Below, piece after piece: positions 1 through 28,542 of a stretch of DNA of 64,000 nucleotides. The first letter of the stretch is position 1; the number at the start of each line of letters is the position of its first letter. The stretch lies in IMG/VR virus record IMGVR_UViG_3300020200_002792, one strand, 5' to 3'. The notes below the pieces were generated by a model, which worked only from the letters and a program-made list of their open reading frames with translations, was not told the origin of the DNA and did not search any database. The translations under genes were made by a program, and so were the position numbers. The DNA is from a virus (Duplodnaviria > Heunggongvirae > Uroviricota > Caudoviricetes).

Positions 1-322
1 CATCTGTAATTATGAAGACTGCTTTTGGATAGGCACACTTATCTTCTTTCATTACCTTTTGGATATGTGCTTCTATGATTCCAAAATTTGTGCCACCACC
101 ACCATATATTTTTCTTGAAATCAAAGTAGTCTCTCTGACTTGTGTATCAAAACAAAATAATCTTACATTGAAATTTTTAGGCAAAGATAAAGCTGCTTTG
201 AAAAACCTATTTTTGTAACCAATGCACGAACCACTTGTATCCAAAAAGAAAAATACTTCTATTTTAGTCTTATCTAACGCATCTTCTTCCATCTCAGATG
301 GCAACACTAAGTCTTGAGACAT
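1..322 (-). CDS. VWA (von Willebrand A) domain protein, N-terminal part; runs off the window start
   Basis: Own translation of the minus strand from ATG at 320-322: MSQDLVLPSEMEEDALDKTKIEVFFFLDTSGSCIGY...YGGGGTNFGIIEAH...KAVFIITDG. MIDAS-like DxSGS, GGGT and ITDG motifs. Not in the ORF track because it is truncated by the window edge. Confidence 0.5.
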   Translation of the reverse strand, partial: MSQDLVLPSEMEEDALDKTKIEVFFFLDTSGSCIGYKNRFFKAALSLPKNFNVRLFCFDTQVRETTLISRKIYGGGGTNFGIIEAHIQKVMKEDKCAYPKAVFIITD

Positions 323-373
323 GCCAACAAATCGCCTATTAAGCCTAGCCCACTGTTCTATTTCTTTGTGATC

Positions 374-1117
374 CTATTTTAATTCCTTAAATGCCCATTT
401 CTTTATTATAGTTTCCCACTTCTTTTTTGGTTTTACAGCAGTAACATCAACAAAAGTCCAGCCACCCGATCCAGTGCTAGCCTGTGCATTATTCTTTTCC
501 ACTAAGCCCCTCAAAGAATTCTTTTCTTGTGGGGTTAATTCTTTATCTAGCTTGTCAATAACTTCATCCGAATCTGGAAGTGTATCGTGCAAGTCTACAG
601 TATGCAATCCAGCAGGTATTTTGGGCAATAAATTGTAGTAAAATTCAAATGACTCATTAGTTGGCAATCCAGGCTTATCCTTGAATACTGTATCAACCCA
701 ACAAAGTTCATTGCTGTTTTTTATTTTCAACCTATCAAAGCCAAAATTGTTAACTAAGGCATGGTTCACTACAATATCTAAGGTAACATTTTTGGCTTCT
801 GTAACCTGCCCACCAATGCGTTTGCCATGATTTAAAATTACATGTAGACATTCATGGGCAATTACAAATAAGCGTTCATATGGAGTTTTTTCTTCCCAGA
901 ACTTAGGATTAAATAAAAATTCTAGGAATTCGCCCTGCTTGTTGAAACGTACTGCTGCTGTTTCAATACTATCAGTGAAAATAGGACGCCCCATCAGCCA
1001 ACATTGGTAAAAAATGGCGTGATGGATTTCCAAATCTTGACTGATGCCGATCCAGTCTTCTTTTGTTATATCCATTAGAATAAAATGTATCCAGCATTCT
1101 TCATTTTGTCCATGCAA
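374..1117 (-). CDS. DUF2201_N-like putative zinc metallopeptidase domain protein
   Basis: HExxH in a conserved context (VIAHECLHVILNHG). It sits between a MoxR-type AAA ATPase and a VWA ORF, as in MoxR-VWA(DUF2201) systems. Confidence 0.5.
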   Translation of the reverse strand: MHGQNEECWIHFILMDITKEDWIGISQDLEIHHAIFYQCWLMGRPIFTDSIETAAVRFNKQGEFLEFLFNPKFWEEKTPYERLFVIAHECLHVILNHGKRIGGQVTEAKNVTLDIVVNHALVNNFGFDRLKIKNSNELCWVDTVFKDKPGLPTNESFEFYYNLLPKIPAGLHTVDLHDTLPDSDEVIDKLDKELTPQEKNSLRGLVEKNNAQASTGSGGWTFVDVTAVKPKKKWETIIKKWAFKELK

Positions 1118-2484
1118 TAATCATAATGTTTGTAGAATGGTAACATACCTGATGCAGTGAAAAGCTTTTTAAATTCACTTTCACTTAATAAAGCGGAACC
1201 TGATGTAGAAATAGTTTGGCAACGGATATTATCTATCAATGTTTTAGCTAATGGGCATAATGCTGCTGTTTTTCTTTTTAAATATTTTTCACTGGTGCTT
1301 TTGACACATTTCATAAAAATTAGAAATGCGTCTTGAGCTTCTATTAAACTCATATTTGCTGGATAGGATGCAACTAATGTGTCAAAAATTGCCCGCCTAT
1401 GTTGGGTAGTAGTTGTAATTGCTGACTTTAATTGCGATATAGTGGTTGCCCATTTTGATGCTTTGTGTTTATCAAAATAAGTAGAAGGCATCGCTTTTTT
1501 AATTTTAAATATCAAAGAATTGTTGGTATTAGCATCGATTATTTCTTTGATTAGATCATTGTAGCACTTTGATGTCGCCTTTTTTTCTGATTCTAAAATA
1601 AATTCCCTGATTTTATTATTAGCTGAAAATAAACAAGATAGTTTTTCTTTTGGTATTAAAGGTAAAAAGAATTCCATCCAACTGCGATGAAATTCTAATT
1701 TGCATGAAGTAAAATTGTTTTCAATAGCCAAAAATTGTCTCGCCGCCTCGGTATTTTTATCTTCTATGAATTTCCAAAGCTTGTCATCTACAGGACCATT
1801 TTTCAAAACACTAAGAAGACTGCCTGGATTGCAACCCTTTGGCAGAACGTCCCTTACATCTCCACCTAAGTTAAACATTTTTAAAGCATAATCAAGCGTT
1901 CTTGGATCAACTAATTTTTTAATTTCAGCAGGAAGTTTTTGCCACCATGCAACAGCAGAATTTGCCAATGATGCGTTGTACGCTTGTGTAAAATAAGCTT
2001 TAGATGGTTCAGAAGGAACATTGAATTTTACATGAAATCTACCTTTTTGAGCCGGGTCTAATTCCTCTACTTGGTACTCTTCAGTATCCTCTGGATTGAT
2101 CGCCGCCCAAACAACTTTGAGATTGTTAAATTTTCTGCCGTTGATGGATTTAAATTGAATTAATTCCATTACGGCGTTACGGACTTTCTTTTGACTTCTG
2201 TTAAATTCATCAAAAAATAGTGCATCAATGTTATCGTCACGAAGTTCTTTGGGTAAAACTAGTTCCAAATAACCACCTTTGTCATCTTTGGCTTCCTTTG
2301 GGATTCCAATAAAATCTACCCAAGGGTCCATTGTTGAGGCACTGAAGTATTTGTATTTTAACTTTGCTCGTCCAAAAGCTGCTAAAACACGACTAGTCTT
2401 TCCTACCCCATGCGGCCCTATTAGCAGCACGTTGAGGTTATTAGCAAGCCAAAAATCTAATTTTTCGTCTCTGAGTTCAGCCAT
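1075..2484 (-). CDS. MoxR/AAA_5-family ATPase with a ~250 aa C-terminal extension
   Basis: Walker A LLIGPHGVGKTS; Walker B ALFFDEFNR; sensor-like NLKVVWAAINP. AAA_5 architecture. Confidence 0.7.
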   Translation of the reverse strand: MAELRDEKLDFWLANNLNVLLIGPHGVGKTSRVLAAFGRAKLKYKYFSASTMDPWVDFIGIPKEAKDDKGGYLELVLPKELRDDNIDALFFDEFNRSQKKVRNAVMELIQFKSINGRKFNNLKVVWAAINPEDTEEYQVEELDPAQKGRFHVKFNVPSEPSKAYFTQAYNASLANSAVAWWQKLPAEIKKLVDPRTLDYALKMFNLGGDVRDVLPKGCNPGSLLSVLKNGPVDDKLWKFIEDKNTEAARQFLAIENNFTSCKLEFHRSWMEFFLPLIPKEKLSCLFSANNKIREFILESEKKATSKCYNDLIKEIIDANTNNSLIFKIKKAMPSTYFDKHKASKWATTISQLKSAITTTTQHRRAIFDTLVASYPANMSLIEAQDAFLIFMKCVKSTSEKYLKRKTAALCPLAKTLIDNIRCQTISTSGSALLSESEFKKLFTASGMLPFYKHYDYCMDKMKNAGYILF

Positions 2485-2490
2485 AGAATT

Positions 2491-2889
2491 TTAAAGTAAC
2501 GAAATTTGTTTTAAGTTGATTGGTTTTACAAAAATTATATTTCGGTTATCTCTATGATGTTTTCGATGACAATTACAACAAATTAGTTCACATTTAGACA
2601 TTTCTGCAAGTATTTTTTCTTTGGGTGCGCAATCACTTAGTAGTCTAGAAATTTCATATAATTTTTCACTTTCATTTGTATGATGAAAATCCAAACAAGC
2701 AATATCACGTTCACCACATCTTTCGCATCCTCCTATTAATAATTTAATTTGATTAACCCATTCTTTTAATCGCTTTTTCTTAAGTTTTATTCTTTGGAGT
2801 TCTTCTTTTCTATATGCCGGGTCTTTTCTGTGATTCTTTTGATAAGCTCGCAAATATTCTTTTTGCTTTTCTTTGTCTTTGTAGCCCAT
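2491..2889 (-). CDS. HNH endonuclease, small stand-alone
   Basis: CERCGERD...LDFHH...N...CELICCNCHRKHH: a zinc-knuckle HNH motif. Confidence 0.6.
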   Translation of the reverse strand: MGYKDKEKQKEYLRAYQKNHRKDPAYRKEELQRIKLKKKRLKEWVNQIKLLIGGCERCGERDIACLDFHHTNESEKLYEISRLLSDCAPKEKILAEMSKCELICCNCHRKHHRDNRNIIFVKPINLKQISLL

Positions 2890-2980
2890 TGATTCTCCGA
2901 GTTTACTAGTTTAATAAGATAGTAAACTCAAATAATTTTTATCTATCCATCTCCATTGTATCAAGTTTTTTTTGTTTTGT

Positions 2981-3235
2981 CTATTGATAATTCGCTGCAC
3001 CACTATAAAGTGCATCTCTATTTGGTTTGTAATAAAACATAGCATCATTTATAAAAGAATCAATTTCTTTTTCTAATCTATTAAAAATTGCATTCGCATC
3101 TTGCCCAATTTTAATTTTATTTAGAGCATCTTGTAGTTTAGCATGGATCATTTTTTTAGCATTCTCTATTTCCCACTGAAATGCTTGTGCTTCTTGATTT
3201 TCCTGCATTTCATTATAAAATTGTAAAAAGCTCAT
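2981..3235 (-). CDS. hypothetical protein; weak member of the capsid-targeting N-terminus family
   Basis: Starts MSFLQFYNEMQE, loosely like the shared M-x-x-F-x-[EQ]-[YWF]-[LI]...E signature. Confidence 0.3.
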   Translation of the reverse strand: MSFLQFYNEMQENQEAQAFQWEIENAKKMIHAKLQDALNKIKIGQDANAIFNRLEKEIDSFINDAMFYYKPNRDALYSGAANYQ

Positions 3236-3452
3236 GTTTTATTTACCCGTTGACAAACAAAAAAACTAAAATATAATAAGACTATGATAGGCAAACGAGT
3301 CTCATTTTGGGAAGATTTAGGCCATAAACGCTGCATGGTCATCGAAGTAGAGTATTCTGGGGCTATTACCTCTTTGCAGGGGACAAATGCCCAAATTGCC
3401 GTAGATTTTGTAGACGGCATGAACATTGATCCTCCTGTTCTAAAAACTAAAT

Positions 3453-4049
3453 CTATTTCTGATTTACAATTCTAGGATTAAACTTATTCACTAAATTTCT
3501 TGGAACGTCAAATATTCTAGCACTACCTAGACCGTAATGGACATTTATCATGTTGGGGTTCGGGTTCTTGTCGTCAGCGTTTATGTAATTCCAAGGCACA
3601 GCTATACTGATGACTGTAGGATTTTGATTTTTTATTTGTGCTTGTCCTCTTGCTACCTGAGCCGCTGTTGCCATATTATCTGAAAAGGACTGATATGCAG
3701 ATTTCCATTCTGGATCATAATTACCAGCTATACCTCTGTAAAGTTTAAGATTATTTTGGTTAGCATGAGCATTTATAGCATTTAAATCTACTCCTTGTTG
3801 TTGTGGCTTATTTTGTATTTTTTGCATTATAGCTTGGGCAAATTGGGAACTCATCTGAACAGTTATGCCTACTGGATTGCCTTTGCGAAATACTTGCCAG
3901 TAATTGCCTTGAATTTGTTTTATACTAGCAATTGGTCCCATTTTTCGGCCATCTTGAAATTTAAGATATGTTCCATCTGGACCCCTATCTATTACATTCG
4001 CAACAAGTCCCTGAGTTTCTTCTAGAAATAACCATTGTTTGAATCGCAT
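3453..4049 (-). CDS. hypothetical protein with T4-CTS-like N-terminus
   Basis: Starts MRFKQWLFLEE. No other recognisable domain. Confidence 0.4.
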   Translation of the reverse strand: MRFKQWLFLEETQGLVANVIDRGPDGTYLKFQDGRKMGPIASIKQIQGNYWQVFRKGNPVGITVQMSSQFAQAIMQKIQNKPQQQGVDLNAINAHANQNNLKLYRGIAGNYDPEWKSAYQSFSDNMATAAQVARGQAQIKNQNPTVISIAVPWNYINADDKNPNPNMINVHYGLGSARIFDVPRNLVNKFNPRIVNQK

Positions 4050-4118
4050 TCATTATTTATTTTATTTTAAAATTAATTTCGTTGACAAAACTTGAAGCGT
4101 TTTAAATTATATATTGCA

Positions 4119-4592
4119 ATGAAAACATTCATGCAATACATAGAGGAGTCAAATCCTGTCCTTGATAAAATGTCTGGTTACTTAAATCAATTAGCGGCAA
4201 ATTTTCAATTAATTGCTCATCAAACAATGGACACCATTGCTCCTTCTATCATGAAAACTGGCTTTGGCAAAAGTGGATTGTATGGTACTAGCCTTTTGGT
4301 TAATCCACAAAGTATTATTCAAACAGCATCCACTATGTTTAGTGGCGATGGCGTGGCTCAAATTCACAAAGGAGCTAATTCTCTAGTTGTACTAGCATTT
4401 CCTAAACAAATTATCCAAAAATACAATCTCAAAGACATGAGAGATATTGACGACCACCTAATGGAATTATACTCTCAAGGCAGAATACCAATCTTTGGTT
4501 TGCCTAGTAAATATATTGTTGGCTATTTTGCCAACAGACAATTTTTTGCCAACGGACAATTTAACCCAGATATAAAATTATTGATGATTTGA
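4119..4592 (+). CDS. hypothetical protein with T4-CTS-like N-terminus (start at the internal Met of ORF 4092..4592)
   Basis: MKTFMQYIEE aligns residue-for-residue with the T4 internal-protein capsid targeting sequence MKTYQEFIAE. Confidence 0.45.
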   Translation: MKTFMQYIEESNPVLDKMSGYLNQLAANFQLIAHQTMDTIAPSIMKTGFGKSGLYGTSLLVNPQSIIQTASTMFSGDGVAQIHKGANSLVVLAFPKQIIQKYNLKDMRDIDDHLMELYSQGRIPIFGLPSKYIVGYFANRQFFANGQFNPDIKLLMI

Positions 4593-4927
4593 TTCCTTCA
4601 ACCAACTCTTCTGCCTGTACCTTCCAATGTTCTTTCAATTGGTCTTTAAATGACACACAATCATCTACGAACTCATTACATATACTTTTGTCGCCAAAAA
4701 TAACACCTATCGCCATTATTATATACCTAATGAAAATTACATGCAAAGCAAATAATAAAATGCAAATAATCTCAACCATTAGCTGCCTCTATTTCGGATT
4801 CTTCTTCACTTATAATGGTTACGGGCGGGCAATTCTCTTCGTAAAAGACTGAAACAATAAATTACTTGAATCCTTTCTGGCAACACACCAACTGTAGGGC
4901 TACGACTCCCATGCTAGTGGATGGTAA

Positions 4928-6052
4928 ATGTCTAAAGCTTTTATTACTGTTGGTCCTGAAGGTAAAAGCCATACCTTTTCTCAATTCGGCTCAGGTACAC
5001 TTGCAAATGTGCCAACCTACTTAGGCCCTAATGTCGTAGTTTGGCCAGAAGCACTCCTTAAAGAAGCCCAGCACTTGCTAGAAATTGGCCTCAGTTATCC
5101 ATTAAAGAGCGTATCTATTGATTCTAAATGCCTTATTACGACTGCATATCATAGAGCATTAAATAGATTAAGAGAAATAAAACGTGGGTTCGTTAGACAT
5201 GGCTCTTGTGGACACGGAATTGCTGAAACAAGAAAATATTGGCTTAAATACAACCAAGATTCTATTTTCGCAAAAGACCTTAAATTTCCTCATGTTCTAG
5301 AAGAAAAATTAAATCTGATCCGCCAAAGAATATTACTTGAAATACAGGAAATACAATTATCTCAAACAGAATCTGTAACAGAACAACTTGAAGTTTTTGA
5401 CTTGCCAATTAAAAAAATGGCAAAAAAACTATGGCAAACTAATTTAAAGATCGTAGAACAAATACCAAATTACAGGACAGCAGTATTTGAAGGTGCCCAA
5501 GGCGTTCTTCTGGATGAATGGTTTGGATTTTTTCCTTATGTAACCAGATCAACTGTAACTTCCAAACATGCTCATGAATTAATTACAGAAGGAGATGAAG
5601 TTACAACTATAGGTTGTATCAGACCTTATGCCACAAAACATGGAGCAGGCCCGCTTCCTAATGAAGATAAAGAATTAACAAAACATGTAAATGACACTGG
5701 TAATCCCTGGAATCAATGGCAAGAAAATTTCAGAACAGGATGGTTAGACCTGGGGTTACTTAAATATGCTCTTGATATAGAAAAAGTTGATTGCTTGGCG
5801 GTTAGCTGTATTGACCATTTAGAAAATTATCAAGAAACTCGTCTTTATGATGGTGCCTTCGATTTCAGTAAGCCAAAGTATAATATAAGGTTAATGGAAT
5901 CAAACACAGAAATATTAAAATCAACAAGACATAAGGGACATTTTATAGCCTTAGATGAATTACTAGAAAGAATAGCAATTGTCCCTATTGGCATCGAAGG
6001 AAGAGGTCCAACCTGGAAAGATAGGAAATCTAATGTATACCAAAACTTGTAA
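4928..6052 (+). CDS. adenylosuccinate synthetase family protein (PurA/PurZ-like) with degenerate N-terminal catalytic motifs
   Basis: FEGAQGVLLD...FPYVTRSTVTS (PurA GAQG...TYPYVTSS), HGAGPLPNE (VGAGPFPTE), RTGWLD. The GDEGKGK P-loop is GPEGKSH, the GGHNAGH block is absent, and IGTTGRGIGP is HGSCGHGIAE. 374 aa versus ~430 for PurA. Confidence 0.55.
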   Translation: MSKAFITVGPEGKSHTFSQFGSGTLANVPTYLGPNVVVWPEALLKEAQHLLEIGLSYPLKSVSIDSKCLITTAYHRALNRLREIKRGFVRHGSCGHGIAETRKYWLKYNQDSIFAKDLKFPHVLEEKLNLIRQRILLEIQEIQLSQTESVTEQLEVFDLPIKKMAKKLWQTNLKIVEQIPNYRTAVFEGAQGVLLDEWFGFFPYVTRSTVTSKHAHELITEGDEVTTIGCIRPYATKHGAGPLPNEDKELTKHVNDTGNPWNQWQENFRTGWLDLGLLKYALDIEKVDCLAVSCIDHLENYQETRLYDGAFDFSKPKYNIRLMESNTEILKSTRHKGHFIALDELLERIAIVPIGIEGRGPTWKDRKSNVYQNL

Positions 6053-6260
6053 TGAAAATGGAAGAATAATTTACGAAAAATATCAAAGCTGGTATGATGT
6101 ACTCCTGGATGGATATAAAATGAGTCTAATGTTCATCCTTGTAGGAATGATAGGTTTAGCCATAACTCCAATTATGGTAATAATCAATTTTTATAGACCT
6201 AAATGTATAGGCTCTGGGTCTGTAAAACCACAAACGGATCATGAATATCATTGTTTATGA
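6036..6260 (+). CDS. small hydrophobic protein (questionable)
   Basis: Internal Met of ORF 5979..6260. Hydrophobic stretch LMFILVGMIGLAITPIMVIINF. Fills the PurA-like/MetRS gap. Confidence 0.25.
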   Translation, partial: YTKTCNENGRIIYEKYQSWYDVLLDGYKMSLMFILVGMIGLAITPIMVIINFYRPKCIGSGSVKPQTDHEYHCL

Positions 6261-7783
6261 GCAAATTTTTTCTTACTACAGCTATTGATTATCCAAATAG
6301 TCTACCCCATATCGGTACTGCCTTTGAAAAAATTGGTGCTTATGTTCAGGCTAGATATCGTCGTTTCAAAGGCGATGATGTATTTTTCCTAATGGGGAAT
6401 GATGAAAATACATGGAAGGTTGCCAAACGTGCTAATGAATTAGGAGAAGAACCTAAAGCATATGTTGATCGCATGGCTTTAGAATTTAAGAAAACTTGGA
6501 ACGCCCTTAATATATCTTATGATGATTTTATTCAAACTACCGAAAAAAGACATATTCAAGGAGTAGACTTTTTTCTGAGACGTGTTATTGATCAAGGATT
6601 CGTTTATAAAAAACAATATAAAGGACTTTATTGTGAAGGTTGCGAAGCCTTTAAAACCACAAAAGAAATTGAAGAAGGCCATTGTATAAATCATAAAAAT
6701 CAAGAACTTAAAGAAATAGAAGAAGAGAATTATTTTTTCAAGCTAAGTGAATTTAAACAACCTTTAATTGATTTGTTGACTTCAAAGCAATTATTAATAC
6801 AGCCGGAATCTCGTTACAACGAAATCATGTCTGTCCTTAATGATGACCTAGAAGATATTTCAATAAGCAGGCGAAATCTAGGATGGGGGATACCTTTTCC
6901 TGGTGATCCTAGCCAGGTCGTCTATGTCTGGTTTGATGCATTGCTTAATTACATGACAGGTTGCGGTTATCCTAATAAGTCTGAATGGTGGCCTGCTGAT
7001 ATTCATTTTATTGGCAAGGATATCACTCGCTTTCATTGTTTGATCTGGCCAGCAATGATCTTAGCTTACAATACCAAATCACCTGAAATAGCACAGCCAA
7101 AGGCAGTCTTTGCTCATGGTTTTGTTAAGAACAGGGGCACAAAAATAGGCAAATCTACAGGTAATTTTGTAGACCCGCTTGAAATTGTTAAGGAATTTGG
7201 TTGTGATGCTTATCGTTACTACTTCCTAAGCCGCTGTGATTATGGAAGCGATGGCGAATATGACCGTAAACACTTCATTGAAGTTTATAACGCAGATTTA
7301 GCAAATAATTTAGGAAATCTCCTCAGTCGTGTTATTAGCATGACAATTAAATACTTTAAAGGAGATATAAGTATATCTAACTATAAACCACGTAACATAA
7401 GTGGTTGTGATGATTACTGCAAAAACATAGAAGAATGCGAATATAAAGTTGTGCTGGAAAAAATCTGGCATATATTTAGTCTTATGAATGCTTACGTTGA
7501 TGAAAATAAACCTTGGGCACTAATCAAGGAAGATAAACAAAAAACAGCAGGTGTTTTATGTGAGCTAATAAATGGATTGCGATTAATGGCTATCCTTCTA
7601 AAACCTTTCCTACCAGATACGTCTCGTAAAATATATGAATCATTTAACTTTGGATATCCTTGGAGAAAATTAACATTAGATTCTTTTTCTTCAGACTATA
7701 ATTCAAGTAATAACATTAACATAATTGCTGTGGATAAACCATCTTCTTTATTCCCAAAATATGAAATAGAAACAGCTATATAA
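6251..7783 (+). CDS. metG: methionyl-tRNA synthetase catalytic core; no C-terminal tRNA-binding extension
   Basis: HIGH-type motif YPNSLPHIGTAFE; zinc knuckles CEGCE...GHCINH; KMSKS-type KIGKSTGN; WPADIHFIGKDI. Confidence 0.8.
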   Translation: MFMSKFFLTTAIDYPNSLPHIGTAFEKIGAYVQARYRRFKGDDVFFLMGNDENTWKVAKRANELGEEPKAYVDRMALEFKKTWNALNISYDDFIQTTEKRHIQGVDFFLRRVIDQGFVYKKQYKGLYCEGCEAFKTTKEIEEGHCINHKNQELKEIEEENYFFKLSEFKQPLIDLLTSKQLLIQPESRYNEIMSVLNDDLEDISISRRNLGWGIPFPGDPSQVVYVWFDALLNYMTGCGYPNKSEWWPADIHFIGKDITRFHCLIWPAMILAYNTKSPEIAQPKAVFAHGFVKNRGTKIGKSTGNFVDPLEIVKEFGCDAYRYYFLSRCDYGSDGEYDRKHFIEVYNADLANNLGNLLSRVISMTIKYFKGDISISNYKPRNISGCDDYCKNIEECEYKVVLEKIWHIFSLMNAYVDENKPWALIKEDKQKTAGVLCELINGLRLMAILLKPFLPDTSRKIYESFNFGYPWRKLTLDSFSSDYNSSNNINIIAVDKPSSLFPKYEIETAI

Positions 7784-8077: not shown

Positions 8078-9544
8078 TCAACCTTCTTGGGCGGTGGGAT
8101 AGTCTAAAACAAACCTCATTTGCCCTGCATCCCAGATTCTGTCATATCCATTTAGTTGCATGATTTCCCATTCTTTCAAATTTTTGTCATAAAATGGCAT
8201 GCTAATAAGATTCTTTTTTTGAAAACTTAGCCTACTGTGCATTGTATTGTTTCTTATATTAAAGTATGAAAAACTAGGGCGGCTCACTCCATCAAACTTA
8301 AATCCAATAGCTTTGTATAACTTTCCTTGTGAATAACGTCTGTCAGCGTAAGTAATGATGCTGCCTTTATATTTAGTCCTAAAATGATTTAAAAGTTTAC
8401 TTGCACCACCAACTACAGATGTGAAATTTTTAGTGCAGAATCTAATCATTTCATATTTGTAACTTCTGTTAAAACGACTCCCATCAAATGTCATGCAAGC
8501 AACAATATTGCCATTATACTCTAATCCATATTTTATTTTGGCGTTGTCTGGACCTTGAATGTGATTTATTGTTAAAAACTCTTCCGTTTCATACCTTTTT
8601 AATTCAACAATTTTTGTCTTTCTTGCATAAATTTTATTGCTTTTGCCCAATAAGTTAATTACTTTAGACTTGATTATGTCTTTTTTATCTTCCCATTCTG
8701 TACTGTATATTTGCACTAAATTTATATTTTTTCCCAAGGCTGCATTGCATTTGTTATAATGATACTTTCTGCCTCTTACTGTTTCTAAATGCCAATATAT
8801 TCCATGATATTCAAATCCCAAATTTAGTTCTGGAAGGTAAATATCAATTTCTTTATCTTCTAATATTTTCCTATCATTTTGCAGTATCGTTCCATTATAA
8901 TTTTCTTTAATGTATTCGTATATTTCTTTCTGTGGTTGAGAAATTTTTATTATGGCCCCACATGAAGGACAACCATTCTTTAAATGAATGTGATTCCCGG
9001 CTCTTTGTTCAAAATCTCCATGAATCGGGCATGTTATAATTATTTTATCTGACATCCTAACGAAAACTGTTTTTGCATAACTATATTTGTTTTCATGGAT
9101 GACATTAGCTATATTGATGAGAGATGTTAGTGAATGTTTGCTTATTCCTCTGCCATTACAGAATTGGCATCCGTGCTTTAAATGTTGAGTTGGCAATTGA
9201 TGCTGGATACCGTGCTTTTCGCAAATGTATTTAATTTTAGTTTGTTTATTTTTATATTCGGTAATTGAATAATTATACTTGTTTCCCCATTTATCTTTTG
9301 CTTGATTTATAAATTGCTCATTAGTTTTTTGTAATGGGTGTTTTCTTTTTTCAATTCCACATTTATAACACCCTTGTTTTTGGTGTATATGTGCATAAGG
9401 CAATATTTCAAAAATGCCATGTTTACATTTTATTTTAACTTTGGTATGTGCGTTAACGTATTCAGTTAAACTATAATCGTAAACAGAGCCATGCACCGCT
9501 ATAGCTTCAGAAATAAAAACAGGGGTTGTCTTTTTATTAGACAT
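8078..9544 (-). CDS. homing-endonuclease-like protein: three zinc-ribbon repeats, a Vsr/DUF559-type nuclease core, and an unknown C-terminal domain
   Basis: Three repeats of KxxCxxHGxF...HLxxGCxxCxG. Then LPELNLGFEYHGIYWH...R...NxxK...LGKNINLV, resembling the Vsr/DUF559 restriction-endonuclease-like core. Confidence 0.45.
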   Translation of the reverse strand: MSNKKTTPVFISEAIAVHGSVYDYSLTEYVNAHTKVKIKCKHGIFEILPYAHIHQKQGCYKCGIEKRKHPLQKTNEQFINQAKDKWGNKYNYSITEYKNKQTKIKYICEKHGIQHQLPTQHLKHGCQFCNGRGISKHSLTSLINIANVIHENKYSYAKTVFVRMSDKIIITCPIHGDFEQRAGNHIHLKNGCPSCGAIIKISQPQKEIYEYIKENYNGTILQNDRKILEDKEIDIYLPELNLGFEYHGIYWHLETVRGRKYHYNKCNAALGKNINLVQIYSTEWEDKKDIIKSKVINLLGKSNKIYARKTKIVELKRYETEEFLTINHIQGPDNAKIKYGLEYNGNIVACMTFDGSRFNRSYKYEMIRFCTKNFTSVVGGASKLLNHFRTKYKGSIITYADRRYSQGKLYKAIGFKFDGVSRPSFSYFNIRNNTMHSRLSFQKKNLISMPFYDKNLKEWEIMQLNGYDRIWDAGQMRFVLDYPTAQEG

Positions 9545-16202: not shown

Positions 16203-16303
16203 GCGACTTCATCCTCTACCCTAAAGGGCAAGCCTCTGTTTGCCTCACTCGCTTCACTCGTTCGTCTGCACAGAGGCTTGTGCTAAAGCATAGAGGTTTT
16301 CGC
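16203..16303 (+). repeat. GC-rich hairpin element X, copy 1
   Basis: cttcatcctctaccctaaagggcaagc; 10-bp stem caagcctctg/cagaggcttg; 32-nt loop; ggttttcgccgc. Present as an inverted copy at 63396..63507 with compensatory stem changes. Confidence 0.6.
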
Positions 16304-16824
16304 CGCCAAGAAGGATAAAATATATTTGGCGCAGCTGGTATATTGTGAGGTTTTATCCATTTTCTAAATTCTTTTGTATTCTTAAAATTTTTATTTCTAA
16401 CTATTTTTCTAGCTATTTTAAAAGCAAGAAATACCTTACATTTGTTAGCTAACCTATTAGTGCCAAGCCAATCACCCCAATTCGACCATTCTTTATATAC
16501 TTCGTTTGGATTTGCAGGAATATCAGTTGGTCGATCTTCTGATTTACAAAACAACCTCCATTCTTTTTGACCAGATAATTTTAAACTTACCACAATAGCT
16601 TTTGCTTTTAAAAATGGCAACCACCCTCCACGACGGCTATTAGTGCCAAGCCAATCACCCCAACATTGCCAATCATCTTTGTAAATGATATTAGGGCACC
16701 TGGGAATATCATCTGGCTTATTATCAGATTTACAGTATCTACGCCAGTCTGGGTTTTCGCTTTTTAAATTTAAAGAATGAACAAAATATTTTGCTTCTTC
16801 AAATGGTCTATATTTATTGTACAA
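16216..16824 (-). CDS. W-rich triple-repeat protein (IPxxPNxxYKxxWxxWGDWLG x3); possibly the detached C-terminal module of the upstream recombinase
   Basis: Three tandem repeats. Starts with TTG immediately after, and in frame with, the TAA of ORF 16825..18861. C-terminal tail reads into the X hairpin. Confidence 0.4.
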   Translation of the reverse strand: MYNKYRPFEEAKYFVHSLNLKSENPDWRRYCKSDNKPDDIPRCPNIIYKDDWQCWGDWLGTNSRRGGWLPFLKAKAIVVSLKLSGQKEWRLFCKSEDRPTDIPANPNEVYKEWSNWGDWLGTNRLANKCKVFLAFKIARKIVRNKNFKNTKEFRKWIKPHNIPAAPNIFYPSWRRKPLCFSTSLCADERVKRVRQTEACPLG

Positions 16825-18861
16825 TTAAATATTTCTTTTCTTTCTTGATTTAAATCGTGCAATTGTGCTTGGGCATTTATGTTTTTTCTTAGTTGCCATT
16901 GATCCCTCATAGAATTTACCGGCAAGATAATCAAACTCTTTACCTTTTGCCCAAGGATAAGACCTTGCCCTATAAAATTTTTGATAGTCTTCTTCACTAA
17001 CTTCAAGTTTCGCATCTACTCTAGTTGAATAAACACTAACGTATTTTTCTTTGTTTTGACAGTTTATATGTATTTTAATATCCATTTTATTCATAATCAA
17101 TTTTAAATCAATATCAGATGCTATGCCCTTTTTTAATTTCAATATTGCTTCTTCTAGTAAAAGTATATTCTTTTTTTCTGATAAATATTTTGGAAGGAGA
17201 TTTGGTTTTACATCCTTTTCTAATTCTATTTTTTCTCTTTCCAATTCTAAAGCTTTTTGCTTCAAGGTAGGCATACTCTCTTTTCCAATAAAGCGATACA
17301 TATTAGAAAGCTGTTCATCTATAAGTTTAATTTTGCTTACAATACCAGAATTTACCTTGTCTAATGCCAAAGAATATAGATATTCAAAATCACCATTACC
17401 AATATCAAATTGGCTTATCAAGTCCTGCATCGATAAAGCGGTATTTATTTTATAAGTGCTTAGATCATAGTTTTGCCAAAATGATAATCTAAAATAATCA
17501 TTTATTATACACACTAACATATTAAGAGCAAAAGACATACAAGCACCTGACTTATTTGTTCTATATCGTGTATTCTCCGATCTAACTACACAATGAACCT
17601 GCCTACCTCCAGAAACAAAATGGCAATCATGCACATCATCCCAAATAAAATCACTCAACCAATGAGCAGGTTTCTTTTCATAATTTCTCCTGCATAAATT
17701 ACTAAGCCCTTTACTTGCTCTAATCTTGTTCACCTTTTTTATATTTTCTGTTTGGCCAACTTCCAATGAAAGTATGTGTTGCCTTAATTCTTTCCATTCA
17801 TCAAATGGCAACAAATTAAAAATAGGCTTGTCTGGGTACACCCAATTTGATTCTGGAACATCATCGGGTTTACATTTCCCTAATCTTGCATTTCTATTCC
17901 TTTCGAATCCATCTGCTTCTTTTTTATTTCTAAAAAACATAGCGGGTGATGATGGTTTTGTAGTTTTACCAATAACAGGCAATCCAACACATACCGAATT
18001 AAGAATAAGTTTGCGACATCTTTCACCAGTCCAACCACAACCATACGAATCTTCAAAATGTTTGGTTAATTCAATAGCCAATTGATTCCAAGTGTAGCCA
18101 ATACCCATTTTTCTTTGCTCTTGACACCAATTAAAAATATACCATAATATTTCTATTCTTTCTTTGTCGCCAGTTAAACAAAGTCGTTGAATGTCCTTTG
18201 TTTTTTCGTGCTTAGACGGATTTTCTTTTTTAATTTCTCCATTAGGCATAATCACTATATGTCGTGTTTTAATACCTAACTTTTTAGCTTTCATTTTACT
18301 AATTATTTCTCGCCAAGTAAAAATATGATTGCCAAACAAATCCTCTCTTCTTACGTCACACAACCAAGGAATATTAAACCCAACATATAACCCCATTTTG
18401 GCCATCGCTTCATGTTTGCCCTTTATTCTTTTTGACAAAGATTCTAATTCATCTGTAGCAATAGCAAACAAACAAGTGGTCATAACTCTTTCAGTAATAG
18501 TTTCTGGAAAACATATATCCCATAACATATTCGGAGTAAAAATTGAGATTTTATGCGGGATAAAGAATTCATTTTTCTGTTTTTCCCATAATTCATAAGT
18601 TCCAAAACGAGTTGCATCTGAATACCACAAATTAAACCCATCAGGATGCAGACAAGATATTTCTTCTAGCTTTTTGAATGAATCTCTTTCAATGCATCCT
18701 CTTTTTTGGCCTTTATCTTCCAGCCACACATCATATTTAATTCCTAAATTATAGGCTAAATTTGCTAAAGTTTCTTTTTGACGATCACAATCTTGGTTAT
18801 TGGTTGAAACACGAACAGCAGCAACATTAATCTTTTTCTCTAAAAATTTCTTATCAGACAT
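16825..18861 (-). CDS. large serine recombinase (resolvase/invertase-type catalytic domain, 678 aa)
   Basis: N-terminal AAVRVSTNNQD...RQKE, the resolvase catalytic serine motif. Size like TnpX/phage large serine integrases. Confidence 0.7.
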   Translation of the reverse strand: MSDKKFLEKKINVAAVRVSTNNQDCDRQKETLANLAYNLGIKYDVWLEDKGQKRGCIERDSFKKLEEISCLHPDGFNLWYSDATRFGTYELWEKQKNEFFIPHKISIFTPNMLWDICFPETITERVMTTCLFAIATDELESLSKRIKGKHEAMAKMGLYVGFNIPWLCDVRREDLFGNHIFTWREIISKMKAKKLGIKTRHIVIMPNGEIKKENPSKHEKTKDIQRLCLTGDKERIEILWYIFNWCQEQRKMGIGYTWNQLAIELTKHFEDSYGCGWTGERCRKLILNSVCVGLPVIGKTTKPSSPAMFFRNKKEADGFERNRNARLGKCKPDDVPESNWVYPDKPIFNLLPFDEWKELRQHILSLEVGQTENIKKVNKIRASKGLSNLCRRNYEKKPAHWLSDFIWDDVHDCHFVSGGRQVHCVVRSENTRYRTNKSGACMSFALNMLVCIINDYFRLSFWQNYDLSTYKINTALSMQDLISQFDIGNGDFEYLYSLALDKVNSGIVSKIKLIDEQLSNMYRFIGKESMPTLKQKALELEREKIELEKDVKPNLLPKYLSEKKNILLLEEAILKLKKGIASDIDLKLIMNKMDIKIHINCQNKEKYVSVYSTRVDAKLEVSEEDYQKFYRARSYPWAKGKEFDYLAGKFYEGSMATKKKHKCPSTIARFKSRKKRNI

Positions 18862-26370: not shown

Positions 26371-26892
26371 TTAATCTCCTAAAGGTTTAATTAAACAAAA
26401 TATTCTTGACCCATTTAACTTAGGTTTCTGGTCAATAATAGCCTCTTCTCCTAATGCACTAATAACATAGTTCATTACTTTGAATCCTTCTTCTTTATGC
26501 GTAATTTCCCTATTTTTAAATTCTAGACTTAATTGCACTCTTTTGCCTTCAGATAAGAATTTTTTAATATTATTGATTTTAATATCGACATCGTGTATTT
26601 GTATAGCAGGACGCAGCCTGATTTCTTTAGTTTCAACAAAAGCTTCTCTTTGTTTTTTATGCTGTTCTTTTTCTTTCTGCTTCTGTTGATAGCGATACTT
26701 ATTATATTCAACGATGTGGCAGACGGGTGGATTGGCTTGAGGTACAACTTCAACTAGGTCTAAACCAGCTTCTTGGGCCATTGTCCTTGCTTTATCGGTA
26801 GGCATTATACCTATTTGTTCACCATCTCTTATTACCCTTACATTTGGAACTCTTATTTGAAAATTGACTCTGGTAAATTTCTTGTTTTGCAT
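26371..26892 (-). CDS. infC: translation initiation factor IF-3, bacterial type
   Basis: IRV..VRVI...GEQIGIM...AQEAGLDLVEV.P.ANPPVC.I..Y.KY and the C-domain KEIRLRP..DVDIK align along the whole length with bacterial IF3. Confidence 0.8.
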   Translation of the reverse strand: MQNKKFTRVNFQIRVPNVRVIRDGEQIGIMPTDKARTMAQEAGLDLVEVVPQANPPVCHIVEYNKYRYQQKQKEKEQHKKQREAFVETKEIRLRPAIQIHDVDIKINNIKKFLSEGKRVQLSLEFKNREITHKEEGFKVMNYVISALGEEAIIDQKPKLNGSRIFCLIKPLGD

Positions 26893-26895
26893 AAT

Positions 26896-28542
26896 CTAAT
26901 TTGTCTTAACTTTCTTAGAAATAGCTTCTGCCATCCTTTTCAAAGCTGGTGATATATCAAGAGAATCAACTTCACAATTTATTACGTAAAAATTCCCACT
27001 TTTAAAAGCTTTTTCCACAGCTACATCCAATTCCTTTTCGTTTTTCACTATCATGCCATCTCCTATTCCTAATAATTCGTTAACTTTATGATAGTTCCAA
27101 TTCAAAACATCATTGAATTTTCCATCTAATATAAATCTTTCTGTTGTATATCCTTTATTATTCAAAACAAAAATAATTGGGTTAAGCTTCCATCTAGCAA
27201 TTGTACTTAATTCAGTAAAAGACATTTGGAAAGCACCATCACCCACAATAACAATAGGACGTAATTTTTTATTAGCAAGACCAGCACCTAAAGCAGCAGG
27301 AATTGCAAAACCCATACTTAAATAAAACGCTTGCCCAAGAAAAGTATCGACACTTTGAGTATGCGTTAAATCAGAAGCCCCTAATAATGAGTCACCAACA
27401 TCAGCAATAATCAATGTATCTTCACTAATTATAGAATCAATCTTTTCAAACAACCTAACCGTAGTAAGTTTAACGTCATTGGCTATAAATTTAGGCAGCT
27501 TTTCCTTTGAAGGCAAAGTAGGCGTTTCACGTTTTTTAATATCTTGCCCAAATAAATTCTTGCAAAAGTCGATAAAATGCACATTGGAATAAGCATGATT
27601 TTTAACTTTTAGCTGGTCCACTGTACAAGTAACCATATCACGCTTATTGAACGCTTTAGATGGTCTATAACCAACTGTAGCTTCTGTAATTACTTCGCCA
27701 CAAACCAATAAACAATCAGAAGACTCAACCATATCCCTTACATGCTCTTTACTACTGTTGCTTCCTGCGTAAACACCTATGTATAAAGGGTGCGTTTCAT
27801 TGACAACAGATTTACTTAACAAAGTGCAAGCAACAGGAATGTTATGTCTTTCAGCAAACTTAATTAACTCTTTGCCAAGTTGAAATCTAGCTATCTCAAC
27901 GCCTGCCAAAATTACAGGAGATTTGGCATTATTAATCCAAGTTAGAACTTCTTCAATAGCATCTTCTAGATTGTGCTGATCAGTAGGTTTAGTTTTTGGA
28001 GTGCCTTGAGTATAGACATCATAATCAACAAACTTAGAAACTATATCTCTAGGTAATTCAATATAGACTGGTTGTTTTTTGTACTTTAAACATTCAAGAA
28101 CACGGTCGATTTCATAACCAGCAGTAGCGGGATTATCAAGTACCGTTTGGGCACAAGTTATATCTTTAAAGCAAGTTTTTTGGTAATCATATGTGCCAAC
28201 GCTATGATGTAATGGAGCATCGCCACGTTCTGTCATGCCTGGAGAGCCGCTAATTACAATTACAGAAGACCTTTCAGCAGATGCACCGGCAATTGAATTG
28301 GTTAATTTTAAGGCACCTACATTATAAGTGGCAATAACGCAACCAAGTCCCTTTATTCTAGCATAAGCATCAGCAGCAAAGCCAGCACCGGCTTCGTCAA
28401 CGCAATTTACTACTTCTATTTTTTTACTTTTAGAAGCAAGTTGACCAAAATAATTTAATATGTAATCTCCTGGAACACCAAAGACGTGTTTAATTCCAGC
28501 ATTTTCTAATCTTTCAATTAAAAATTCTGCTACACTTAGCAT
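26896..28542 (-). CDS. thiamine-diphosphate-dependent 2-keto-acid decarboxylase (pyruvate/indolepyruvate/KdcA family)
   Basis: N-terminal GVPGDYILNYF; ThDP motif IVIVGDGAFQMSFTELSTIARWKLNPIIFVLNNKGYTTERF. 548 aa. Confidence 0.75.
   Translation of the reverse strand: MLSVAEFLIERLENAGIKHVFGVPGDYILNYFGQLASKSKKIEVVNCVDEAGAGFAADAYARIKGLGCVIATYNVGALKLTNSIAGASAERSSVIVISGSPGMTERGDAPLHHSVGTYDYQKTCFKDITCAQTVLDNPATAGYEIDRVLECLKYKKQPVYIELPRDIVSKFVDYDVYTQGTPKTKPTDQHNLEDAIEEVLTWINNAKSPVILAGVEIARFQLGKELIKFAERHNIPVACTLLSKSVVNETHPLYIGVYAGSNSSKEHVRDMVESSDCLLVCGEVITEATVGYRPSKAFNKRDMVTCTVDQLKVKNHAYSNVHFIDFCKNLFGQDIKKRETPTLPSKEKLPKFIANDVKLTTVRLFEKIDSIISEDTLIIADVGDSLLGASDLTHTQSVDTFLGQAFYLSMGFAIPAALGAGLANKKLRPIVIVGDGAFQMSFTELSTIARWKLNPIIFVLNNKGYTTERFILDGKFNDVLNWNYHKVNELLGIGDGMIVKNEKELDVAVEKAFKSGNFYVINCEVDSLDISPALKRMAEAISKKVKTN

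Follow-up and report, generated by a model that had tools for sequence, protein, structure and literature searches.

A 64,000-nucleotide (nt) stretch of DNA from a virus of the class Caudoviricetes (IMG/VR record IMGVR_UViG_3300020200_002792), hereafter called the window, carries at its left end, on the minus strand, a two-gene module of the N4 gp24/gp25 type, made up of an ATPase and its partner protein, with one lineage-specific amber codon in the partner gene. An earlier interpretation of this DNA, made without database searches (the sequence-only reading), had described the locus as three consecutive open reading frames (ORFs) for a MoxR-type ATPase, a metallopeptidase-like protein with an HExxH motif and a von Willebrand factor A (VWA) domain protein. 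The three ORFs are indeed present at the coordinates given there. The apparent three-gene layout arises because one premature TAG cuts the second gene in two; the MoxR/peptidase/VWA arrangement is an interrupted copy of an ordinary, known module and no new design.

The first gene (1075..2484, minus strand) encodes a MoxR-like AAA+ ATPase of 469 amino acids (aa), N4 gp24-like, identified by Pfam AAA, phrog_1297 and its fold. The N-terminal piece of the partner gene (N4 gp25-like) follows at 374..1075 on the same strand with 233 codons plus the TAG, and is assigned by Pfam to DUF2201_N and to phrog_1314. The HExxH ORF as originally listed, 374..1117 (247 aa), is a mechanical, TTG-started call. 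Its true start is likely the ATG at 1075, which overlaps the stop codon of the ATPase gene as TAATG and yields a 233-aa product. The in-frame amber codon lies at 374..376, and 17 sense codons (323..373; DHKEIEQWARLNRRFVG), homologous to coding sequence in all relatives, separate it from the ATG at 322. From that ATG the C-terminal piece, carrying the VWA domain with its metal ion-dependent adhesion site (MIDAS), occupies 1..322 and exits the window edge. The window contains the first 107 of its 147 codons, and the rest could be completed from two further contigs, L001 and L003. The HExxH and VWA ORFs share one frame, divided only by the single TAG and the 17 sense codons, and the minus-strand translation of 1..421 reads ...WAFKELK*DHKEIEQWARLNRRFVGMSQDL... 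A frameshift between 322 and 374 (specifically at 323..373), for which the sequence-only reading had advised a check, was therefore rejected.

Several lines of evidence identify the two pieces as parts of one gene. When compared with PHROG 1314, the read-through fusion aligned in one stretch, covering positions 28-355 of 394 (E 1.2e-33), and the separate pieces aligned at positions 28-232 and 251-355. Searching a protein database returned 901 homologues of the fused partner. Among the best 120 of these, 119 were 390-495 aa long and aligned with 97-100% of the fused query (46-61% identity), and the sole short protein came from the same phage. The partner is uninterrupted in 79 of 80 IMG/VR loci and in all 46 metagenome loci with full coverage, giving 125 of 126 related loci across both surveys. 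Gene pairing is equally consistent: an ATPase homologue adjoins the partner in 80/80 IMG/VR loci and in 38/38 metagenome loci where upstream sequence is available. It usually lies directly upstream, the variants being two loci with the ATPase on the opposite strand in divergent orientation (L057 and L076) and two others in which about 2.4 kb is inserted between the genes (L021 and L022, at 650..4000). The one interrupted locus among the 80 from IMG/VR, L048 (IMGVR_UViG_3300045125_000119, 2100..5330), was considered as a second interrupted or recoded copy and rejected, as it has several frameshifts in both genes and is uninformative; its conserved EQWARLNRR motif is readable in another frame, and it represents either a low-quality assembly or a degraded copy. 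No third conserved gene accompanies the module: across 129 related loci, relatives of the flanking proteins of 131, 84 and 198 aa are absent, and the HNH gene beside the module finds a match in only one.

The intact partner is normally a single protein of about 400 aa, in which a conserved linker helix (KKKWE..W...EQW..RR) joins an N-terminal DUF2201_N domain (HExxHxxxxH) to a C-terminal VWA domain whose MIDAS is complete. The HExxH ORF passes the DUF2201_N model (PF13203) with 34.2 bits against a cutoff of 23.2, so the earlier call of a metallopeptidase-like domain survives a profile hidden Markov model test. The HECLHVILNH motif starts at 842..856 (HECLH), and its H74, E75, H78 and H83 are invariant in 34 sequences; by these sequence features, the domain is predicted to be zinc-metallopeptidase-like. 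In the VWA piece, DTSGS (MIDAS) lies at 227..241 and GGGGT at 89..103, and ITDG falls at or beyond the window edge. This piece stays under the threshold of every VWA model (VWA_CoxE 23.2 vs 26.4; DUF2201, PF09967, 14.0 vs 26.4; VWA_2 12.5 vs 27). A VWA fold together with the MIDAS residues DxSxS...T...D was found, and the domain structure matches the VWA domain of NorD, the partner structure being taken from the homologue P0001 (61-62% identical), which stands in for the fused protein of the window.

In the P0001 model, the position of the TAG lies inside a long inter-domain helix (residues 251-282), with invariant residues on both sides. The alignment column at the TAG is variable (E/D/Q/P/A), and the codon aligned with it in the nearest relative is GAG (Glu); one G-to-T change (GAG to TAG) thus accounts for it. 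Five invariant residues (E240, Q241, W242, R247 and R248) fall in the gap between the TAG and the ATG at 322, with EQWAR encoded at 344..358, and no ATG, GTG or TTG precedes the EQW..RR motif there. The methionine encoded by the ATG at 322 (position 252) is also present in P0001, P0003 and P0004. It is therefore ancestral in the nearest relatives and not a newly evolved start codon. The sequence-only reading was right that the usually fused parts read as two ORFs here; what it took for an alternative architecture is one amber codon inside a conserved helix.

The TAG is genuine and not a sequencing error. The same codon is carried by L001 (JGI 3300020193) and by L003, a contig that Logan assembled from SRR7052762. 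Across 8,484 nt L003 does not differ from the window, and L001, apart from a 30-nt deletion, aligns without mismatch to both, over 1,976 nt of the window and 6.9 kb of L003. In an exact-sequence look-up, three contigs carried the 233-aa piece, one carried a variant of 223 aa and six carried the 147-aa VWA piece; the assemblies came from JGI, Logan and ENA. No uninterrupted allele of this phage's partner was found among 15 billion proteins. A sequencing error between 322 and 374, raised in the sequence-only reading as a way in which the locus could prove to be an ordinary fused gene, has in its favour that one base change would fuse the ORFs and that the only other interrupted homologue, L048, is plainly error-ridden or degraded. 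Against it stand the recurrence of the identical TAG across different samples and across assemblies of three origins, the 30-nt indel, which shows that the contigs are not copies of one assembly, and some 8.5 kb of neighbouring sequence that is identical between assemblies without sign of poor quality. We therefore regard a hidden sense codon at this position as extremely improbable.

What the codon does to the protein is less certain, and on balance we lean towards a recent nonsense mutation, inactivating or hypomorphic. A single G-to-T change would have placed an amber in the middle of the linker helix, after which the partner reads as two ORFs. The mutation would have become fixed or dominant in the population, with full-length protein abolished or strongly reduced. 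What is made would then be the HExxH fragment of 233 aa, perhaps joined by a VWA fragment of 147 aa if ribosomes re-initiate at ATG 322, with readthrough product present in traces at most. The deletion in L001 (524..553 on the minus strand, a segment present in the window and L003) is in frame and drops KLDKELTPQE, including the near-invariant L180 and E184; the co-circulation of such an allele hints at relaxed constraint. Several observations weigh against a loss of function. The linker and VWA part downstream of the TAG show no decay and retain every invariant residue: conservation relative to the N-terminal part is 1.04 for the gap (family mean 0.97 +/- 0.08) and 1.09 for the VWA part (family mean 1.07 +/- 0.04). 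The lesion must accordingly be very recent or tolerated, and the absence of decay fits a very recent mutation and continued translation equally well. The TAG is also the only allele in several samples, which is odd for a loss-of-function allele when all 126 related loci examined conserve the gene, and the sole observed indel keeps the frame. No relatives between 62% and ~100% identity turned up in a 5.8-billion-cluster protein search, IMG/VR, a metagenome scan or the GTDB genomes. Finally, a suppressor tRNA may be encoded elsewhere in the genome, of which only about 74 kb has been seen (relatives span 280-600 kb) and which encodes tRNA-Met, a methionyl-tRNA synthetase (MetRS) and IF3.

These points bear directly on the idea that the amber is decoded, by a host or phage suppressor tRNA or by basal or programmed readthrough, such that full-length partner is made, perhaps in reduced or regulated amounts, alongside the 233-aa isoform. 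The variable TAG column is in its favour too, since any inserted residue would be tolerated, and one tRNA-Met (CAT) does lie just outside the window (L001 2505..2577, about 0.5 kb past the left edge). Yet TAG is in regular use as a stop: the 77 ORFs of at least 100 aa end in TAA (37), TGA (23) or TAG (17), the last group including genes of 1140, 560 and 384 aa, so an efficient suppressor would be costly. The window holds no tRNA gene, the ~74 kb available no suppressor tRNA, and in-frame TAGs are absent from the other conserved genes of the window; where a TAG elsewhere separates two ORFs of one frame, these are distinct genes, for example a thiamine-pyrophosphate (TPP) enzyme and IF3. No stabilising RNA structure follows the codon (z +1.58), and the stop is seen in one lineage only. 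TAG followed by G is not known to be a notably leaky context in E. coli. Decoding of the amber is thus possible but unlikely. Genome-wide TAG recoding was rejected, as the total length of ORFs of 150 aa or more grew only from 52.1 to 54.2 kb when TAG was read as sense, quite apart from the use of TAG as a terminator and the missing suppressor tRNA. A functional split, the three-gene architecture of the sequence-only reading, in which the 233-aa HExxH protein and the 147-aa VWA protein, the latter re-initiated at ATG 322, act with the ATPase as non-covalent subunits, strikes us as less probable still. In its favour, each piece is an intact ORF, the allele predominates in the population and separate VWA adaptor proteins occur in other MoxR systems; the ATG at 322 sits 51 nt past the stop, a distance within reach of termination-reinitiation. 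However, the cut misses the domain boundary and bisects a conserved helix, the five invariant residues of the gap would be lost from both products, and Met 252 is ancestral. Neither a clear Shine-Dalgarno sequence at normal spacing for ATG 322 nor a promoter or terminator above chance between the two pieces was found, none of the other 125 intact loci is split, and in the bacterial NorQD system the ATPase acts on a covalent linker. We give little credence to the amber as a regulatory device, in which controlled readthrough (for instance through a suppressor tRNA elsewhere in the genome, or at a particular stage) would set the ratio of HExxH-only to full-length protein; if true, one gene would here show the kind of stop-codon switching that recoded phages display across whole genomes. 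Should the stop prove to be suppressed, it would hold moderate interest for the control of translation in phages; failing that, the finding is an ordinary one.

The ATPase has the characteristic motifs of an AAA+ module. Walker A (GPHGVGKTS, aa 23-31) lies at 2392..2418, Walker B (FFDEFNR; LFFDEF at aa 89-94) at 2197..2217, sensor-1 (AAINP, with the sensor-1 Asn) at 2092..2106 and GRFH, with the putative arginine finger R149, at 2032..2043. Residues G23, G26, G28, K29, D92 and E93 are invariant in 36 sequences, and the conserved R149 is compatible with an arginine finger. The protein passes the generic Pfam AAA model PF00004 (25.5 bits vs a cutoff of 21.2) and falls below the MoxR-specific thresholds (AAA_5, PF07728, 18.4 vs 22; AAA_3, PF07726, 13.1 vs 27), so the domain named in the sequence-only reading, AAA_5, is not reached by score; some homologues do have precomputed PF07726 or PF07728 matches. 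It matches phrog_1297 (E 2.4e-15). An NCBIfam scan found nothing for the partner and, for the ATPase, only hits far below threshold, among which the gas-vesicle protein GvpN (11.5 bits) is the nearest of the MoxR class. The best PDB match of a family profile built from 36 homologues was the MoxR-type structure 2r44 (E 9e-5). An AlphaFold model of the ATPase (predicted local distance difference test, pLDDT, 88.8) was compared with the PDB using Foldseek. The top 17 matches were NorQ/CbbQ structures (E 2.6e-8 to 3.4e-6, target TM-score 0.54-0.60), followed by MCM and dynein, with 2r44 also matched. The modelled fold thus identifies the ATPase as MoxR-like, and together with the DUF2201_N score and the MIDAS motif it supports the original pairing of a MoxR-type ATPase with metallopeptidase-like and VWA parts. 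The AAA+ module spans about aa 1-250 and is followed by an all-helical extension of about 220 aa (aa 250-469), modelled with high pLDDT. The C-terminal extension noted in the sequence-only reading is therefore real, and it is a family-wide trait, with invariant N256, E280, T360, R363 and P375, and not peculiar to this gene.

Related systems suggest how the intact module may work. In NorQD, a finger of the VWA domain plugs the hexamer pore, and the ATPase twists and stretches the partner linker, remodelling the client (PMC13036017, PMC9976466); in the general MoxR-vWA model, the MIDAS captures a peptide and ATP hydrolysis passes a conformational change on via linkers (PMC7159879). By analogy with NorQ/NorD and other MoxR-VWA couples, the phage ATPase would form a hexameric ring on which the VWA domain docks, the MIDAS metal holding an acidic residue of the client or of the ring. 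ATP hydrolysis would then pull or twist the linker helix, so that a client on the N-terminal domain is remodelled, or the peptidase-like domain is activated or positioned. The amber codon would cut exactly the force-transmitting element, and in a version of two non-covalent pieces, with the linker severed, coupling would be expected to fail. In this phage and its relatives, the module sits among genes for nucleotide metabolism, replication and translation, which points to an intracellular role during infection rather than a role in the virion. The invariant linker helix and the NorQ-like ATPase fold suggest concrete sites to mutate in a tractable phage, N4-like or PA5oct-like, and a natural population with the partner cut at the linker amounts to a small natural experiment on the dispensability of the module.

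The sequence-only reading had called such modules uncommon in phages, which is wrong for this subfamily. It corresponds to PHROG 1297/1314 and N4 gp24/gp25, and IMG/VR holds 203 loci. Among cultured phages, 21 records carry the partner, comprising N4-like Schitoviridae, PA5oct-like jumbo phages and a 595-kb uncultured phage (52% identity). The 185,579 species genomes of GTDB yielded only 11 full-length relatives, all on short contigs of metagenome-assembled genomes and none in isolate genomes; the subfamily is thus essentially phage-borne. A megablast search of window positions 1..6000 against cultured phages gave no match. The PADLOC anti-phage defence models gave no significant match either (best RmrA, E 0.04), and membership of a defence system was rejected. 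The three-ORF layout should not be catalogued as a new system, the module being already known from N4-like and giant phages. PHROG 1314 and several RefSeq or GenBank phage records (NC_049372.1, NC_049467.1, NC_071039.1 and OR805292-5) name the gp25-like metallopeptidase/VWA protein 'HNH endonuclease' or 'homing endonuclease'. The original submissions of the same phages call it 'metallopeptidase', and the endonuclease label looks like a propagated mis-annotation.

Other genes in the window were also annotated. Two HNH/homing-endonuclease genes lie on the minus strand at 2491..2889 and 8078..9544 (phrog_2255/3106 and phrog_559, respectively); the former, directly upstream of the ATPase gene, is probably a mobile insertion, as it is not found at that place in relatives. 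An adenylosuccinate-synthetase homologue at 4928..6052 (plus strand; PurZ-type phrog_1211, E 5.6e-48; Pfam Adenylsucc_synt, 8.7e-45) suggests that the phage may make 2-aminoadenine (Z) DNA. Translation genes comprise a MetRS-like gene at 6251..7783 (plus strand; tRNA-synt_1g, 1.2e-90, and Anticodon_3), a complete IF3 at 26371..26892 (minus strand; IF3_N and IF3_C) and the tRNA-Met, a set typical of very large phages. Immediately upstream of IF3, the TPP enzyme at 26896..28542 (minus strand) has all three TPP domains and is acetolactate-synthase-like, an unusual auxiliary gene for a phage. At 16216..18861 (minus strand), the TAA of a serine-recombinase ORF (678 aa; 23.4 bits with Resolvase) leads straight into a 202-codon ORF of the same frame that lacks an ATG, scores 27.8 bits with Pfam INT_rpt and has no relatives in IMG/VR; here, too, an in-frame stop may have interrupted a gene.

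Other viral MoxR-VWA or MoxR pairs can be likened to the module by their published descriptions. Acidianus two-tailed virus encodes the couple p618 (MoxR) and p892 (VWA) (PMC7159879), and in Bacillus phage 0305phi8-36 a MoxR pair carries the annotation 'MoxR-type metalloprotein chaperonin' (PMC2147016). In contrast to both, the module described here lies among nucleotide-metabolism and translation genes, not among tail genes. It is to the bacterial MoxR-VWA systems with solved structures, NorQ/NorD and CbbQ/CbbO, that the ATPase model is closest in fold (NorQ, with E 2.6e-8 and a target TM-score of 0.60), and the NCBIfam scan found no family membership at the sequence level. The phage proteins differ from them in two respects: the N-terminal domain of the partner is zinc-peptidase-like, unlike that of NorD, and the ATPase has the extra helical domain of ~220 aa.

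The closest named relatives are N4 gp24 and gp25 of the N4-like phages (Schitoviridae; PHROG 1297/1314), which are two adjacent genes in the same order. Genome papers on these phages list gp24 (AAA ATPase) and gp25 (vWFA / pfam13203) among the shared genes, with their function given as unknown (PMC2784036, PMC6992544). In Roseobacter phage RD-1410W1-01, gp27 and gp28 are annotated as an 'N4 gp24-like' ATPase and an 'N4 gp25-like' metallopeptidase-domain protein. Our family profile aligned with this gp25-like protein over 327 columns (hhalign probability 99.1%, E 5e-19), spanning HExxHxxxxH, R..RR, DxSGS, GGGT and TD, and the ATPase cores align at 30% identity (BLASTP E 2e-7). The relationship is nevertheless distant (21-26% identity by tblastn). 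The N4-like ATPase has 392 aa compared with 469 aa here, with only the AAA core aligned, and the N4-like partner is one ORF where the present one is cut by the TAG. Homologues from uncultured large phages, such as the 595-kb LR756511 and a 281-kb contig encoding P0001 and P0123, are far closer, with 52-62% identity over the fused length, the same helical tail on the ATPase, the same gene order and genes that overlap or nearly abut. Some large-phage ATPases bear a further C-terminal addition of ~100 aa that the ATPase of the window lacks. None of these phages has an interruption in the partner gene, and the codon corresponding to the TAG is GAG in them.

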